64,000 bases of DNA from Candidatus Omnitrophota bacterium (GCA_041650835.1 JBAZKL010000004.1:102900-166899); one strand, 5' to 3'. Counted from the stretch's first letter, positions 5,105 through 31,991 are shown. The notes: a model not told the origin generated them from the letters alone. Translations and numbers: made by a program.

Positions 5105-5949
5105 ATATCAATCACACCCTGGAATATCAGGGACCTCCATATTCGCCAGTTACGCTTATCGTTTCGGTAGCTTAAAGGCCATTTACTAATAGAGAAAGAA
5201 TCCCAATCATATAGAAAGTCAAAATCCTGGTTATTCCTTTCGCTTTCCAGACAATTCCAATGTCTGACTAAACTTGCAGATAAATTTCCGGGTCCCGTAG
5301 TAGACTGTATATCAACTCGTTTTTCGGGACTATTTAAAAGGATTAATGTTGCACGTTCCAAGGCCTGTTGAATAATTGGATGATCTGGCGGTGCAATAAT
5401 TGGATTGTTGTTCACGTAAAAAATCCAGTTAGGAGAGTTTGCGTTCAGATTTATATAAATGCATTCCTGAATCATTTTGCCGCTAAAATGATCGTAGCAT
5501 AAAGGTTGTACTTTGAGTCGATCATCGTTGAAAAAGGATTGAAGACCTTTACCCTGATAGACTTCGTCAGCATCTACGTAAAAACCTCCTGATTTTAAAA
5601 GGTAACAAAGACGAAAGTAGTCGCACCGCATTGCCGGGTGGGAACAAAGGTCAAAGGCTGCAACGTGTTTTATGCCAAATCGTTCGTGGATAAAATTCCT
5701 AGCCGAACAGTCATCAAAAATAACTCGCTTAAAACCTTGTTGAATAAGCGACTTCCAGCTGTCTAGACACTCCTGAACGTCGACAGGCACATCATCTAAG
5801 TCATGCCAAAACTGAATAATTACCCTCGGGATATCGATGACACTATGTCGTTTCTTGGATGAGACAGGTTTTTGAACCAGTTTTCGGATACACTCGGAAC
5901 GCAGGTTGTCATCTTCTTCAATATGTGAAATATCTTCCTTGGGCTTCAT
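5101..5949 (-). CDS. GT32-family glycosyltransferase (DXD sugar-binding region, Och1/Gb3-synthase-like)
   Basis: IPRVIIQFWHD matches the IP(K/R)IIHQ(I/F)W motif. FYVDADEV supplies the DXD. There is a 4-bp overlap with the downstream gene, suggesting an operon. Confidence 0.6.
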   Translation of the reverse strand: MKPKEDISHIEEDDNLRSECIRKLVQKPVSSKKRHSVIDIPRVIIQFWHDLDDVPVDVQECLDSWKSLIQQGFKRVIFDDCSARNFIHERFGIKHVAAFDLCSHPAMRCDYFRLCYLLKSGGFYVDADEVYQGKGLQSFFNDDRLKVQPLCYDHFSGKMIQECIYINLNANSPNWIFYVNNNPIIAPPDHPIIQQALERATLILLNSPEKRVDIQSTTGPGNLSASLVRHWNCLESERNNQDFDFLYDWDSFSISKWPLSYRNDKRNWRIWRSLIFQGVIDI

Positions 5950-6139: not shown

Positions 6140-6410
6140 GACAATTCCAGAAACACTTAATTATCTGGATGTTTTTTAGGTCCAGACTTCCCCTTTCACA
6201 GTCCCCTCCCAGCTAACTCCTCCAATTTCCCTTTAAACTCTTTAATATAGAAGACGGTTCTCAATCCCATCATTTCCTTCAAAAAAGACGGGTTTCTACT
6301 ACCTATAATCTTATCACCCCCAACTGTTTGAGCAAGCAATAATTGCCTAGGATCAGGCGCGGGTGACCTGCACCTTTTAAAAGAAAGATAACGGCATGAC
6401 ACCGATTCCT
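6140..6410. repeat. ~250 bp repeat element, copy A (cacttaattatctgGatgttttttaggtccagacttcccctttcacagtcccctcccag...ttgagcaagcaataattgcctaggatcaggcgcgg)
   Basis: About 90% identical to 9495-9760 in the same orientation, with a partial third copy at 1190-1270. The 68-aa ORF inside it differs from its homologue at 9550-9747 mostly by non-synonymous changes, so it is probably non-coding. Confidence 0.75.
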
Positions 6411-6617
6411 AAACGTCGGTAAATTTCTCGCAAGGAATCGATGTTAAATAAAAAACCCCACCATAAAATAGCAGGGTTTTTTATTTTAACTCCTCGCGCC
6501 ACCCAAACTTTTCTATAACTATCCATGTAGGAATGAATTACAAGAAGAAGGGTAACAGCAGCACGATTATGGCTTGAGAATTAATAGCGAGCTGGCCTCT
6601 TTTATTTATAAACAAAA

Positions 6618-7292
6618 TTAAGAAATGAGTTCTATTCTGAAAAGATTATCTTTTTCGAAAACTCGAAATTCAAAATTACATGAATCGCATTTCATTTTTT
6701 CCCCAATTTTTCTCAATGGTACCTCAACATTTTTATTACATCTACCGCAATTAACGTAAATTCGATAGCAGGAAGAACATAAGCCAATCATCATAGTTCT
6801 TGGTTTTCCATCCTTTTTATCAATAAATGCTAGATGAGAATCCCAATATATTAAAGAAAGCGGACAATCAGTTCTGTTAACAGTACAATATTCACAACAT
6901 GATAGAGAAAAATATGGCATTTTTTTATAGTCACTGTTTAAATCAATAGTCTCCAATGTAATGTTGCCTTTTCTAGCCCGTTTTGAGGCAGCCTTAGAAA
7001 ACCCTTTTGTTGTTATCATTAATCCCATATCAACATTTACATCATCAAGAAATCCATAAAAAGAATCTATTCTAGGGAGAGTAATCTTTGCATTAAAACA
7101 TTTACAATCTACTACGATTACTACTTTTTTATTGTTTAATCTAGTGAAAATCAGTATATCGATTTGTCGTTTTCTATTACTGTGTCGGCCATCTAAAAAA
7201 TATTTACGAAAGATTCTGGTCTTTTCTGGGCATAATCTTCGTAAATAAGCAAATATTTGCCCCTCATAATCACGCCATTTAACCATGGCCAA
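6618..7292 (-). CDS. Mrr-like PD-(D/E)xK restriction-endonuclease-fold protein with a C-terminal Cys-rich zinc-ribbon region
   Basis: RQIDILIF...VVIVVDCKCF matches the Mrr_cat D...(D/E)xK core. The C-terminus carries CCEYC...C...CSSC...CGRC...CDSC. Separated by 4 bp from the upstream gene. Confidence 0.55.
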   Translation of the reverse strand: MAMVKWRDYEGQIFAYLRRLCPEKTRIFRKYFLDGRHSNRKRQIDILIFTRLNNKKVVIVVDCKCFNAKITLPRIDSFYGFLDDVNVDMGLMITTKGFSKAASKRARKGNITLETIDLNSDYKKMPYFSLSCCEYCTVNRTDCPLSLIYWDSHLAFIDKKDGKPRTMMIGLCSSCYRIYVNCGRCNKNVEVPLRKIGEKMKCDSCNFEFRVFEKDNLFRIELIS

Positions 7293-7296
7293 CTCC

Positions 7297-8163
7297 TCAT
7301 TGAAAAAAGTCAGGGAGGGAATCCCTCCGTGCTTGTAGCTCTTCTTTCGTAATCAATTTCATTAAATACAATAAAGAATTGCCTAAATCAGTCCACCAGT
7401 ATGAAAATTCAACAACTGTTTTTTCGCCTCCGGCGGTAGGGGCTCTAGTTGAAGCCGTATTTAAGCCAAGAATCCCGTGCGTGCATAAGTTAGCTATGGC
7501 AGGCACATGCCTTTCAAAAGCCCCCCTTAAATGATTTTCTTTTAACCGACTTATTAACTCGTCCTCATAATCCTTACGCCCTTGAGGTGAAGTATGGAAG
7601 GCGAAATTTCGCTTCCCACATTGGGTCATTATTACTTCAAACTCGTAGGGCCCTAAGAGCATTCTCGCTTGTTTAATTCGTTTTTCATTTTCAATCTCAT
7701 AGGACTTGATTGCATCAACGATTCGATTAGCCAAAGGTTCAATGCTTTTTGTAAGATCATTTTCGTACTCATAAAAGATCAAATCTTTTGTATCGAAAGT
7801 GGGGTTGTATCCCTTTTCTGCAATCAATATTTGCCTCTCTTTTGGTTGTGTGGCATGAGCAATTCCTAATTCATAAAAAACATTAGGATTGGTTTCAGTC
7901 GTTAATACACCCAATACAATCTGGGCTGTCATTAGATGATCTAAGACATTTATCCAACCTGACGTCATTCTGATATCTTCTTTTGTCCTATGTGCATAGA
8001 GAGCCCTTTTGTCTGAATAACACAAAATATCATTTGCTTTTACGATAGCAGGATTGATTAAATTTTCATAAACACCATCGTATTTAGCAGAAAACGGCAT
8101 AACGACAAAAATTTCCCGAGAATTTATTCCTTTTAGTTGTGGTTTATGGTCATACGTATACAT
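7297..8163 (-). CDS. Nucleoside 2-deoxyribosyltransferase-like (NDT/SLOG-type Rossmannoid) domain protein with an uncharacterised C-terminal half
   Basis: IFVVMPFS...YDGVYE corresponds to the AGPFF-like loop. FYELGIAHATQPKERQILIAEKG corresponds to the catalytic (E)-x-G-x-A...GKP pattern of NDT-like enzymes. Confidence 0.45.
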   Translation of the reverse strand: MYTYDHKPQLKGINSREIFVVMPFSAKYDGVYENLINPAIVKANDILCYSDKRALYAHRTKEDIRMTSGWINVLDHLMTAQIVLGVLTTETNPNVFYELGIAHATQPKERQILIAEKGYNPTFDTKDLIFYEYENDLTKSIEPLANRIVDAIKSYEIENEKRIKQARMLLGPYEFEVIMTQCGKRNFAFHTSPQGRKDYEDELISRLKENHLRGAFERHVPAIANLCTHGILGLNTASTRAPTAGGEKTVVEFSYWWTDLGNSLLYLMKLITKEELQARRDSLPDFFQ

Positions 8164-8397
8164 TATCTACCTCAATATCATTCACAATTCCGGGGACACT
8201 GGACTTGCCCTGATAAAATGGACACCTAGTTGACGTGTGCTCTTCGCTCGTATTCCACGGGGCTCACATATCCCAAGGTCGCAGAATTCCAGGGACAGCT
8301 ACCACAATTATTTACCATTACTTTTCGGCCCAGGCTTCTGCCTATGCAAAACACGTCCCGTTATCGCCTCAAGACGGTCGATAGAATTCCGGTAGGA

Positions 8398-9375
8398 CTA
8401 AAAGCATTGAACGGAGATTAACGGCCTACTGCCTTCTTGAGGCGCCCCACCATTGATATATACCTTCCATTGTATATCGTACTGGAACCTCTTATCCCAA
8501 CGATCGTGATCCATAAAGTAATGAAGCTTGGTCATTCCATCTTCACCGAAAAGCTTTAGTTTCTTCCCAGGCAATAAATCACTCGTAAATTGCTTTTTAG
8601 CGATGTCGGCTAAGCCTGAAAAAGAAAATATCAGACATAGATAGCCGGGCTTGTCGCGTGAGTCAGTCCCTCTTAAATGAGGATAATTCCACTCCGTTTT
8701 TTCAAGATAGGCTTTTGGAAAATAAAGGTCGACGTCGACATCTTCAAATTTTCTGGAACTTCTATTTTCAATTTCAAAAACAAACGAATATTTGTGCAGA
8801 TCCTGAGTCATTTCAAGTTTTTTGAAATCTGCTGTGATTTTCGTTGATGTCTCCGGCTTAGAATATTCACTCTTAAGCTTTTCGTGCGCATCCCATTCGT
8901 CCTTGGTCAAATCCCGATCAGCAATCGGAAAACCCATATCTCCACAAACCATTTTCAATGTCTCAACAAACTCTTGCCGAGAAAAATATTCCTTCCCTTG
9001 GCTCACCAATGTTAAAGGCGCGCCGAAATCACTTGCTGAAATATTCGTAAACAGCGGATAAACTTTTTTATCTTTAGCCCATACCGCAGCTGATTCCCAC
9101 CAAACCCATGATGACGTCTTTGATTTAACAGAACATATAGGAATTATCGCTTTGGCGTGTTTAAGTTTTTCTTCCATCATTATCTTTAGGGGATTTTCAC
9201 CGGGCGGGATATCTCTTTTGGCAACGAATGCTTCAATCTTTGATTCGGTTAAACGATGGATAATATCCCTAATAAAATCCGCTAACGCCAGTTCCTCACC
9301 AGTGTAACTAATGAAAACGATCGGCTTTTCAAAATCGACACGCCTTAATTCATCAATTAAATCGCCCATTGCCAT
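8398..9375 (-). CDS. TIR-domain protein (N-terminal ~150 aa TIR) with an uncharacterised ~170-aa C-terminal domain
   Basis: KPIVFISYTGEE...FIRDI...IEAFV...AKAIIPICS...SSWVWWESAAVWAKDK.VYPLF is a typical bacterial TIR pattern, including a candidate catalytic Glu. Confidence 0.65.
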   Translation of the reverse strand: MAMGDLIDELRRVDFEKPIVFISYTGEELALADFIRDIIHRLTESKIEAFVAKRDIPPGENPLKIMMEEKLKHAKAIIPICSVKSKTSSWVWWESAAVWAKDKKVYPLFTNISASDFGAPLTLVSQGKEYFSRQEFVETLKMVCGDMGFPIADRDLTKDEWDAHEKLKSEYSKPETSTKITADFKKLEMTQDLHKYSFVFEIENRSSRKFEDVDVDLYFPKAYLEKTEWNYPHLRGTDSRDKPGYLCLIFSFSGLADIAKKQFTSDLLPGKKLKLFGEDGMTKLHYFMDHDRWDKRFQYDIQWKVYINGGAPQEGSRPLISVQCF

Positions 9376-9494
9376 AAATAGCTCCTATTAGTCGCACTTA
9401 CCTTGTCTTACCGGCCATGTGCGCTTGAATTTCCGCTTCGTTTATACGCTTACGTCCGGTCAACTCGTCCGCTGTAGGCGTCCGCCCTATAGGG

Positions 9495-9760
9495 ACAATT
9501 CCGGGGACACTTAATTATCTGAATGTTTTTTAGGTCCAGACTTCCCCTTTCACAGTCCCCTCCCAGTTAATTCCTCCAGTCCCCCTATAAACTCTTTAAT
9601 ATAGAGGATGGTCATAATTCCCCACATTTCCTTCAAAAAAGACGGATTTCTACTACCTATAATCTTATCACTCTCAACTGTTTGAGCAAGTAATAATTGC
9701 CTAGGATCAGGCGCGGATGAATAGGCCCTTTTAGGAAAGAAAAACATAGAAAAAACGAGA
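9495..9760. repeat. ~250 bp repeat element, copy B, direct repeat of 6140-6410
   Basis: cacttaattatctgAatgttttttaggtccagacttcccctttcacagtcccctcccag...ttgagcaagtaataattgcctaggatcaggcgcgg. Confidence 0.75.
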
Positions 9761-9877
9761 CGGCCACTGGGGCCTTATTTTTAAACATTTTTTTGCTTGA
9801 TTTAAGGCTTATTTTAATATAAAATACTTTCTTGCAATTCTAAGAAGAGCTTTCCATAAATTATAAATATAGATCAT

Positions 9878-9950
9878 TCCCCTGTAGCTCAGTTGGTAGA
9901 GCAAGTGGCTGTTAACCACTGGGTCCGAGGTTCGAGCCCTCGCGGGGGAG
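9878..9950 (+). tRNA. tRNA-Asn (anticodon GTT)
   Basis: Cloverleaf by hand: acceptor TCCCCTG/CGGGGGA, D arm GCTC-AGTTGGTA-GAGC, anticodon arm AGTGG-CTGTTAA-CCACT, T arm CGAGG-TTCGAGC-CCTCG, 73 nt. Confidence 0.85.
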
Positions 9951-10123
9951 TAAAATTTGCCCGTGTTTTACGGACGGCAAATTTATCCCGAGCGTGCGAA
10001 GAAAATTTCGCATAATTTGCATACCGTTAAAATAATCCAGGTGGCAAATTAAAGGAATTTTCGAGCGTTTACGCGAGGGACAAATTACCCATAATATCCG
10101 AACTTTTTGGATATTGGGGACAA

Positions 10124-10172: not shown

Positions 10173-11879
10173 ATGAAATTACAATCAATACACATTAAGC
10201 GTTTTAAAAACATTGCAGATGCTTCTTTTGATGTCTCTGCAGTAAACGTGTTAATTGGCGCAAATAACTCAGGTAAAAGCACCATTCTTCAGGCACTTCA
10301 TTTTTCCATAGGACTGTTGCAGACTTTAAATCTCGAAGGCAAATTAATAGGGAAAGATTTGTCGGTGAGCTTAAGTCCGACTCAATTAATTTATAGTCCT
10401 TGCGACAATGTATATTCTTTGGGTCCTAATGGAAATTTAAAAGAACCGAAAGAAAGCGCAATTAATATTGATTTTGTTTTAGACAATGGTAAATGTCTAA
10501 AAATTAGTATAAGCAAAGGTAGGAATCGAAATATTGTTATCGGAATTAATGACGCAACAATCGCTAAGACCCTTTCAAAAATCGAAAAACCTTTTACTAT
10601 CTTTACCCCTGGATTAGCTGGAGTGGCAAAACAGGAAAACTATGTCTCTGACGGTGTCTTACTTAGAACGATTGCTCGAGGTGATGCCAATATCGTCTTA
10701 CGCAATACATTATATCGCTTATGGAAAACAAAAGATACTCATTCGGATGGCAGATGGAATGACTTTGAAAACGACCTGCATGAACTTTTTCCTAATACAG
10801 CTTTCACCGTTGATTTTAATCCTTCTGTCGATGAATTTATTCGAATTGCAATTGATTCTGGAAACGGCTTTGTTCCTCTAGAAATAGCGGGGACGGGATT
10901 GTTGCAAGCAATTCAAATTTTATCGTATATTCATTATTTTAATCCCTCTGTACTTGTTCTAGATGAGCCGGACTCCCATTTACATCCAAATAATCAACGA
11001 CTATTGTGTAAATTATTAACATTGGTTGCGCAGGATCGGCACATTCAGATATTGCTTAGTACTCACTCTAGGCATGTTGTCGATGCGTTAAAGAATTTAG
11101 CAGAGTTGTTTTGGATTAGAAAAGGGATCGTTGATAAGGCGGATGACGGTGATGATCTTCCAATTTTATTGGATATAGGCGCACTTGATGTTAAAGAACT
11201 TATTACTCAGAACAAAACTAAGTGTATTGTATTAACTGAGGATGAATTAAAGCAGAACTTGGAACTACTCCTTCAGTCGTCTGGATTTGAGATGGATAAT
11301 ACTGTTGTTTTACCCTACTACGGCTGTACCTCTCCGCACAATTTAAGAGCCCTGATGCATGTGATAAAAGGAACTAATCCAAAAGCAACGGTAATTATTC
11401 ATAGGGATCGAGATTATTTGACAGAAATTGAGCAAGCTGAATGGGCTGAAAATATTCGAGCACTTAAAGCTGAACCTTTCTTGACACCAGGCACAGATGT
11501 GGAAAGTGTCTTTTTAAATGAAGATCACCTTGCCACCTTGAATCCAAAGACAAAAAAAGAAGAATTTAAAAAACTGATAAGTAAAGCAATGAAAGAGGTC
11601 AGAGAGGAAAATATTAAGTTGTATATAAATTCGAGAATTGAAATTGCAAAAAAGACAGGCACATTTGGGAAATTAGACATTGGGGCTTTGGGCGTTGAGG
11701 CTCCGCATCTGTACCAAAAGAACCCATATGGGTTGAGGCATGGAAAAACTGTACTACGTAAATTACGAAGTATCTTCCAGGCTGAGAATAAAACAAACCT
11801 TATTATTTCTAAGGCAACGACCTTTATTAAGTTGTTTGAGTTGCAGGAGATTGCAAAAAAGATTTTTAAATTAAAATAA
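10173..11879 (+). CDS. OLD-family nuclease (N-terminal ABC/AAA-type ATPase plus C-terminal TOPRIM), standalone (class 1-like)
   Basis: Walker A GANNSGKST. Walker B/D-loop VLVLDEPDSHLHP. C-terminal TOPRIM-like IVLTEDE ... IIHRDRD. No adjacent helicase gene. Confidence 0.65.
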   Translation: MKLQSIHIKRFKNIADASFDVSAVNVLIGANNSGKSTILQALHFSIGLLQTLNLEGKLIGKDLSVSLSPTQLIYSPCDNVYSLGPNGNLKEPKESAINIDFVLDNGKCLKISISKGRNRNIVIGINDATIAKTLSKIEKPFTIFTPGLAGVAKQENYVSDGVLLRTIARGDANIVLRNTLYRLWKTKDTHSDGRWNDFENDLHELFPNTAFTVDFNPSVDEFIRIAIDSGNGFVPLEIAGTGLLQAIQILSYIHYFNPSVLVLDEPDSHLHPNNQRLLCKLLTLVAQDRHIQILLSTHSRHVVDALKNLAELFWIRKGIVDKADDGDDLPILLDIGALDVKELITQNKTKCIVLTEDELKQNLELLLQSSGFEMDNTVVLPYYGCTSPHNLRALMHVIKGTNPKATVIIHRDRDYLTEIEQAEWAENIRALKAEPFLTPGTDVESVFLNEDHLATLNPKTKKEEFKKLISKAMKEVREENIKLYINSRIEIAKKTGTFGKLDIGALGVEAPHLYQKNPYGLRHGKTVLRKLRSIFQAENKTNLIISKATTFIKLFELQEIAKKIFKLK

Positions 11880-31823: not shown

Positions 31824-31871
31824 CAAAACCATCTCCTTACGGTTAATGGTTTTGCGCTAGAGGAAGAAAAA

Positions 31872-31960
31872 CGGAGAGGCTGGGATTTGAACCCAGGGTC
31901 CCAGTTTCCCAGGACAACTCATTAGCAGTGAGTTGCTTTCGACCGCTCAGCCACCTCTCC
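31872..31960 (-). tRNA. tRNA-Ser (anticodon GCT), type II with a long variable arm
   Basis: Reverse complement folds by hand: acceptor GGAGAGG/CCTCTCC, anticodon arm ACTCA-CTGCTAA-TGAGT, T arm CTGGG-TTCAAAT-CCCAG, 89 nt. Confidence 0.85.
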
Positions 31961-31991
31961 AAATTTCTCTAATTTTACTGTCGGAAATTTG

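Follow-up and report, generated by a model that had tools for sequence, protein, structure and literature searches.

The segment from 6140 to 9760 of a 64,000-nucleotide stretch of DNA from a Candidatus Omnitrophota bacterium (GCA_041650835.1 JBAZKL010000004.1:102900-166899; this whole stretch is called the window below) is best read as a small part of a variable region of the defence type. It carries three genes, coding for a TIR-domain protein, for a protein related to the nucleoside 2-deoxyribosyltransferases (NDT-like, the middle gene) and for an Mrr-type nuclease. We consider these to be independently travelling genes and not the parts of one three-component machine, and assign to this reading a probability of about 0.6.

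A Probable Patchwork of Separately Travelling Genes

The evidence includes a co-occurrence survey in which each gene served in turn as the anchor. A total of 258 loci fetched by homology was searched by tblastn (the first 165 loci likewise). None of the 258 holds relatives of more than one of the three genes. The two loci of the closest homolog of the middle gene, which were fetched later and compared by blastp, likewise contain no such pair. The contexts covered in this manner are about 25 for the middle family, five for the TIR family and two for the Mrr family. As the relatives of the three genes are never found together, the triad is not a conserved unit; the segment is a patchwork of separately travelling genes. 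The sequence-only reading had proposed a split Thoeris-like system consisting of a TIR signal maker, a SLOG reader and a nuclease. Neither this proposal nor a conserved neighbourhood of the triad can be upheld: the families do not co-occur, the middle protein has an enzyme-type signature and PADLOC detects no Thoeris component.

The layout itself is as had been described, i.e., three co-oriented minus-strand genes are situated in an AT-rich island and are bracketed by direct repeats. The GC content of the cassette is 38.8% compared to 46.2% for the window and 47.7% beyond 12.1 kb. The individual genes differ, too: 31.3% for the nuclease gene, 37.8% for the middle gene and 40.3% for the TIR gene. 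These differences from gene to gene, together with a truncated gene remnant which accompanies the TIR gene, speak for separate origins.

The NDT-Like Protein

The middle gene (7297-8163, minus strand) codes for a protein of 288 amino acids (aa) with an N-terminal domain (N-domain) of approximately residues 14-135 and a C-terminal domain (C-domain) of approximately residues 137-288. The protein has no match in Pfam (even at E 0.1), PADLOC, NCBIfam or the sequences of the PDB, and its family as a whole is without a Pfam, PADLOC or NCBIfam model. PDB sequence searches with single proteins and with the family profile returned nothing. A profile of the N-domain superfamily, run against the PDB, found DNPH1/Rcl (E 0.0019) and aligned NVFYELGIAHA on GVGYELGRAVA, the Rcl/DNPH1 motif in which the catalytic Glu is located. 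The corresponding Y97-E98-L-G is invariant in 25 family and 20 superfamily members. Invariant even in relatives with 30% identity are F19, M22-P23-F24, R59, N92, N94-V95, Y97-E98, G100-I101, H103 and Y133, and the strictly conserved signature of the N-domain can be written as MPF...R...NxNVxYELGIxH...PFD, with E98 as its glutamate. The fold is Rossmann-like of the NDT type; structure comparison places it closest to NDT/MilB enzymes and to TIR domains. The more distant relatives P0239, P0246 and P0255 exceed the cut-off of the Pfam model Nuc_deoxyrib_tr, the window protein stays below it. Of the earlier label, NDT/SLOG-like, the NDT-like Rossmannoid part is retained and the SLOG part is dropped, as structure and the YELG glutamate fit NDT/DNPH1 and TIR.

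The C-domain is helical with a long beta-hairpin and is specific to the family; its matches are restricted to weak ones with the TFIIE winged helix. Most instructive is P0224, a metagenomic protein of 390 aa: it carries a canonical TIR_2 domain (E 3.8e-13), and the C-domain behind it shares 39% identity with residues 144-288 of the window protein (E 3e-31). The same C-domain is thus served by either a TIR_2 or an NDT-like domain, which indicates an exchangeable effector in the N-domain and, in the C-domain, a shared module for sensing or regulation. Taken together, the structural matches to NDT/MilB enzymes and TIR domains, the YELG alignment and the swap in P0224 suggest that the middle protein is an effector enzyme and not a signal receptor. 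Further, N-domain relatives occur in fusion with TPR-S/MAP3K_TRAF_bd, HEAT, Macro, PP2C and receiver domains; such fusions are the pattern of a conflict-system effector. An alignment of the middle family against the TIR family by hhalign revealed no similarity. As a side observation, the N-domain profile weakly matches the N-terminal region of human ASK1/MAP3K5 (E 0.14), and in three loci (L017, L024 and L041) bacterial N-domain relatives are fused to MAP3K_TRAF_bd and TPR-S, an ASK1-like architecture.

The family comprises at least 222 homologs at E <=1e-3, all of them 265-290 aa long and 47-71% identical. The hosts are Omnitrophota, Nitrospirota, Ignavibacteriales, Bacteroidetes, one gammaproteobacterium, ANME-1 and Bathyarchaeia. 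An exhaustive search with the family profile yielded 28 cluster representatives at E <=1e-30 and 9,080 at E <=1e-3, nearly all of the latter matching in the N-domain only. Relatives of the N-domain are likewise all that was found in a plasmid collection and in viral contigs, and in PHROGs the matches are to families of unknown function.

About 25 distinct genomic contexts of the family were read. The neighbours vary and are mostly restriction-modification (R-M) or defence genes; no neighbour family recurs among these contexts. In two loci a 68%-identical homolog is inserted between hsdM and hsdS of a type I R-M operon (L004, 6001-6852; L005, 2116-2967), followed by a 486-aa protein of unknown function and a Dam-type methylase, in L005 also by hsdR. 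In another (L255, 2200-5858) the homolog lies 40 nucleotides (nt) downstream of a pair of GajA-like (OLD-Toprim) and GajB-like (UvrD) genes and precedes a 540-aa protein without a Pfam or PADLOC match; an AlwI-type R-M enzyme and Dam are present in the context of this pair, too. Elsewhere the neighbours are a type IIG Eco57I/MmeI-like enzyme; genes of the SIR2-like and DUF5677 kinds; GmrSD together with a DNA methylase, a DUF4062 protein and a McrB-like AAA_5 protein; and DUF2971 with an S8 peptidase. A single case, from Ignavibacteriales, has plain metabolic genes on its upstream side.

The TIR Protein and the Nuclease

The TIR gene (8398-9375, minus strand) codes for 325 aa. Residues 20-111 match Pfam TIR_2 with E 2.6e-12 (47.7 bits, the cut-off being 28), and E94 in SSWVWWESA, i.e., in the W-x-W-W-E column, is conserved to at least 90% across 26 family members. 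The N-terminal TIR domain with a candidate catalytic Glu, as noted from the sequence beforehand, is thereby confirmed. The C-terminal part, for which no assignment had been given, is a beta-sandwich domain (approximately residues 178-325). With the ThsB_TIR model the protein scores 20.4 bits, just short of the cut-off of 21.2, and PADLOC reports no match to a ThsB model.

The family has 76 homologs in short and long forms. About half of them (P0123, P0135, P0158 and others) possess an additional N-terminal domain of about 125 aa without a Pfam match; the window protein is a short form. Five distinct contexts were read, and a neighbour common to them was not found. They comprise an island with DarT-Macro, ThsB_TIR and a recombinase, a context with HSP70/DnaJ, one with ArdA, and an island with an integrase, AbiU2 and type I R-M genes. 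In the plasmid collection the TIR protein has no match.

The nuclease gene (6618-7292, minus strand) is an open reading frame of 224 codons from a TTG; the NCBI protein P0197 starts at the ATG at 7286 and has 222 aa. This ATG lies 10 nt past the TGA of the middle gene and is preceded at a distance of 6 nt by GGAG (TGA-GGAG-N6-ATG). The Shine-Dalgarno-type GGAG and the 10-nt gap make the two genes look translationally coupled. The earlier placement of the nuclease directly downstream of the middle gene therefore stands; the length of 224 aa and the gap of 4 bp are to be replaced by the probable start at 7286, i.e., by 222 aa and 10 nt.

The assignment as an Mrr-like PD-(D/E)xK enzyme with CxxC zinc ribbons is borne out: the protein matches Mrr_cat with E 2.7e-10 (40.8 bits, cut-off 21) and NA-iREase1 with 28.8 bits, it contains D45...D62-C-K64, where homologs have ECK or DAK in the same place, and it carries four CxxC pairs in its C-terminal region. 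A LysW-like zinc ribbon covers residues 180-221 (E 0.0012). Only four relatives are detectable. They match in the catalytic, N-terminal half only and are situated in unrelated contexts, of which two were read; none of the four adjoins a TIR or an NDT-like gene. The nuclease is nearly an orphan, specific to its lineage and operonic with the NDT-like gene in this genome only.

Repeats and Junctions

The direct repeats had been given as about 250 bp in length and about 90% identical; the measured values are 240-249 nt and 88%. The left copy (6140-6386) is non-coding and is positioned upstream, in the minus-strand sense, of a glycosyltransferase gene starting at 5949. The right copy (9494-9742) is situated next to the remnant that accompanies the TIR gene. 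Aligned over 6140-6379 and 9494-9733, the two are 88% identical, 249 nt being matched by blastn, which is far beyond chance.

Several identities of the repeat were considered and rejected. Each copy embeds an open reading frame (65/68 aa), yet the substitutions between the copies are distributed over the codon positions as 8:5:5, which speaks against coding selection and against the repeat as a small gene. A structured RNA in repeats or spacer is not supported by fold z-scores of 0.18 (left), 0.32 (right) and 0.72 (spacer), and Rfam, searched with repeats and spacer at gathering thresholds and at E up to 1, returned only tRNA and chance matches. An attC or integron border was discarded for want of an inverted repeat inside the repeat, and an island targeted to the tRNA for want of a duplicated 3' end of tRNA-Asn; in both cases, moreover, a search of the window for tyrosine and serine recombinases, done by phmmer with two queries and of limited sensitivity, gave none.

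The TIR gene is separated from the middle gene by an intergenic spacer of 234 nt (8164-8397, minus strand). It contains a 17-nt motif, AGTGTCCCCGGAATTGT (8184-8200), 20 nt ahead of the start codon of the middle gene; the right repeat reads the same at its inner end (GTGTCCCCGGAATTGT). In its 16-17-nt form (minus strand GTGTCCCCGGAATTG[T]) the motif is present at 2564-2579, 6141-6156, 8184-8200 and 9495-9511, so that each of four consecutive gene modules on the minus strand (TPR, glycosyltransferase, NDT-like and TIR) has it at its 5' edge. With up to three mismatches GTGTCCCCGGAATTG has 6 matches compared to 0.46 expected. None of the 260 fetched loci contains the motif GTCCCCGGAATTG. The edge motif may be a junction or a regulatory site.

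Upstream of the TIR gene the last 29 codons of another gene are preserved (9404-9490, minus strand). By tblastn this remnant is 76% identical (E 7e-11) to a small gene of L166, the closest TIR locus, where the full gene of 81 aa precedes the TIR gene; the window keeps its C-terminal end. The DNA homology to L166 spans the TIR gene up to window position 9489, and the remnant breaks off 4 nt short of the right repeat. It looks like a recombination scar. The end of the remnant 4 nt away and the recurrence of the terminal motif upstream of other genes suggest that the repeat edge is a junction.

A second direct repeat that brackets a gene was observed at 1344-1441 and 2673-2770 (98 nt, 88% identical), one copy to either side of the TPR gene (1443-2471). 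In both copies a hairpin that is nearly perfect (AAAACACGGTGACTGTCAC...GTGACTGTCACCGTGTTTT) is succeeded, on the plus strand, by TTGAAA-N17-TACAAT.

Neighbouring Genes

As previously noted, a tRNA-Asn (GTT) gene is located beside the cassette (9877-9951, plus strand). It is directly followed by a stand-alone OLD/ABC-type ATPase gene in a segment of 36% GC (10173-11879, plus strand), outside of the cassette; a partner gene is not evident. The ATPase matches Pfam AAA_15, AAA_21 and SMC_N and the PADLOC models NsnB, AriA, Old (2.4e-18) and GajA. It had been called a stand-alone OLD nuclease. The OLD/ABC-type ATPase is indeed next door; a Toprim domain is not reported by Pfam, yet TED...DRD-like motifs are visible in the C-terminal half. 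Farther away, between 26850 and 32700, short dispersed and tandem intergenic repeat families (40-73 nt, 73-98% identical) surround a tRNA-Ser gene (31871-31961).

Alternative Explanations

Several points weigh against the interpretation as independently travelling defence genes. The three genes are probably anti-phage genes, a role inferred from the genomic context, and neither the TIR nor the NDT-like protein fits a PADLOC system model. Short metagenomic contigs limit the flanks of the loci surveyed: about 15 loci of the middle family extend for at least 1.2 kb upstream and about 24 for at least 0.7 kb downstream. It is also conceivable that the two adjacent TIR-superfamily proteins act jointly in this particular genome. 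The Shine-Dalgarno-coupled junction argues for a local functional link between the NDT-like protein and the nuclease. Finally, in about one-third of the loci a second, variable gene follows the NDT-like gene at a distance of 40 nt or less, and consequently the NDT-like protein may not always act alone. In view of this tightly linked downstream gene, though it is unrelated from locus to locus, a two-gene system is kept as the main rival, possible though on balance unlikely. It would consist of an NDT-like core and a variable downstream partner, here the Mrr-zinc-ribbon protein and elsewhere SIR2-like, DUF5677, SEC-C-motif or other proteins, the TIR gene being a separate neighbour. Beyond the junction in the window, it can invoke co-directional downstream genes within 40 nt in L007, L008/L100, L090, L098, L087, L009 and L004/5, and partners some of which have effector-like domains, namely SIR2_2 (weak), a SEC-C motif and DUF5677; PADLOC, applied to the partner genes, gave weak SIR2 and E2 matches and nothing more. 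On the other hand, the partners are mutually unrelated, about two-thirds of the contexts have a gap of at least 100 nt or no co-directional partner, and one context has housekeeping genes upstream. No relative of the nuclease adjoins an NDT-like gene, and P0224 suggests that the N-domain is itself the effector.

That the NDT-like protein is a housekeeping enzyme of nucleotide salvage or regulation, and the cluster an accident in a variable region, is improbable. To be sure, the NDT/DNPH1 superfamily includes salvage enzymes, the Ignavibacteriales homolog has metabolic genes upstream, and no model of a defence database fits the protein. Yet a patchy spread over distant phyla including archaea at 50-70% identity, variable neighbours that repeatedly are R-M or defence genes, a superfamily fused to conflict-system sensor domains (TPR-S, Macro) and an N-domain interchangeable with TIR_2 are difficult to reconcile with such a role. 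Most improbable of all is a three-gene Thoeris-like system, with the TIR protein as the source of a NAD-derived signal, the NDT/SLOG-like protein as its reader or processor and the Mrr protein as the executor. Co-oriented genes between repeats in one low-GC patch, a TIR domain with a conserved Glu and the near miss of the ThsB_TIR model are all compatible with it. It is already largely refuted by the lack of any locus with two of the three families. Further, the 234-nt spacer sets the TIR gene apart from the other two, the GC contents of all three differ, the TIR gene arrived together with a truncated remnant on its upstream side, the active-site signature of the middle protein is of the enzyme type (NDT/TIR) and its fold is not that of SLOG, and PADLOC finds neither ThsA nor ThsB. 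Of the candidate anti-phage system put forward by the sequence-only reading, the domains and the flavour of a defence island remain, the three-gene unit does not.

Proposed Mechanism

Under the interpretation as independently travelling genes two self-contained sensor-effectors would be present. Module A consists of an N-terminal TIR_2 domain, with E94, and a beta-sandwich; module B consists of a DNPH1/NDT/TIR-like Rossmann-type domain, with E98, and the helical, beta-hairpin C-domain. Conceivably, the C-terminal domain serves to sense a phage cue or to govern assembly, and upon infection the N-terminal domain would cleave an N-glycosidic bond. The most likely substrate would be NAD(P)+, which is also that of TIR, of Swarozyc and of the effector of Retron-Eco1. 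A deoxynucleotide, as in DNPH1, would be a less likely alternative, considered because of the DNPH1-like signature. The predicted outcome is abortive infection or a block of phage replication. The Mrr-like enzyme may cut DNA; it would then either act on its own as a type IV-like restriction enzyme or have been recruited locally to module B as a second effector.

The NDT-like family is, in our opinion, a reasonable candidate for a new single-gene defence. A more specific version, in which NDT-like domain and C-domain form a new single-gene anti-phage system with an active site that attacks deoxynucleotides rather than NAD+, possibly the hydroxymethyl-dNMP pools of phages, appears decidedly unlikely. 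DNPH1 is a 5-hydroxymethyl-dUMP hydrolase, and a hydroxymethyl-dNMP target would fit the company of enzymes acting on modified DNA (Mrr here, GmrSD and McrB-like proteins elsewhere).

Comparison With Known Systems

The sequence-only reading had found no match to a named system, and this holds: PADLOC reports no Thoeris component, and its models fit neither of the two sensor-effector candidates. The known kinds present are TIR-superfamily single-protein effectors and an Mrr-type nuclease. With Thoeris, which pairs a ThsB TIR sensor with a ThsA effector of the SIR2-SLOG or Macro type, the segment shares a TIR protein with a catalytic-type Glu and a defence-type neighbourhood. It differs in that a ThsA-like SLOG or Macro reader and a PADLOC Thoeris match are missing, relatives of the TIR gene never adjoin the NDT-like or Mrr families and the second protein has a signature of the NDT/TIR enzyme type. 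NDT-type active sites have been noted in some ThsB proteins (PMC11204291).

Swarozyc is a single-gene system with a DUF4062 TIR-like NADase and an auxiliary domain (bioRxiv 10.64898/2026.05.01.722283). Modules A and B resemble it in having an N-glycosidase-type domain of the TIR superfamily, one key Glu, a fused auxiliary domain and a single-gene format in defence islands. The C-terminal domains are different, however, the activity is a predicted one here, and membership of the middle protein in DUF4062 was considered and rejected (no Pfam DUF4062 match; hhalign probability of 0.1 against a DUF4062 protein). In Retron-Eco1 (Ec86) an NDT-like N-glycosidase effector hydrolyses NAD(P)+ (PMC12673091). 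The NDT-superfamily domain, an immune effector there, is shared; a reverse transcriptase or msr/msd RNA nearby and a PADLOC retron match are absent here, and the architecture is another one.

From the N-glycosidases DNPH1/Rcl, NDT and MilB the middle protein is set apart by its score below the Pfam threshold, the extra conserved C-domain of about 150 aa and the mobile, defence-type context. The CAP12/Pycsar TIR effectors (PF10137; TIR-STING) provide the best Foldseek matches (E 3e-4), a PDB sequence match (CAP12, E 0.035) and sub-threshold Pfam matches in relatives; in contrast, a sensor of the STING, SAVED or cyclic-nucleotide type is missing from the segment, as is a cyclase gene from its vicinity. 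With the Mrr-family type IV restriction enzymes the nuclease shares the Mrr_cat core with D...D-x-K. It is, however, short (222 aa) and nearly an orphan; the winged-helix DNA reader that is usual at the N-terminus is missing, and the multi-CxxC region at the C-terminus is unique. Finally, co-oriented genes parted by similar repeats and a short conserved motif at the 5' edge of successive modules are reminiscent of integron cassette arrays. The repeats here have no attC-type inverted repeat and are longer than attC sites, which are under about 150 nt, and the phmmer search of limited sensitivity found no integrase in the window.

Significance

The tempting notion of a new Thoeris-like triad is removed and replaced by two testable candidates, the DNPH1/NDT-like family and the family of TIR proteins with a beta-sandwich. 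The DNPH1/NDT-like family is exchanged among distant bacterial and archaeal phyla, and a canonical TIR domain can take the place of its enzyme domain. If either family protects against phage, single-protein immune effectors of the TIR superfamily would extend to lineages without cultured hosts, and the question would be raised whether NDT-type immune enzymes target NAD+ or nucleotides.

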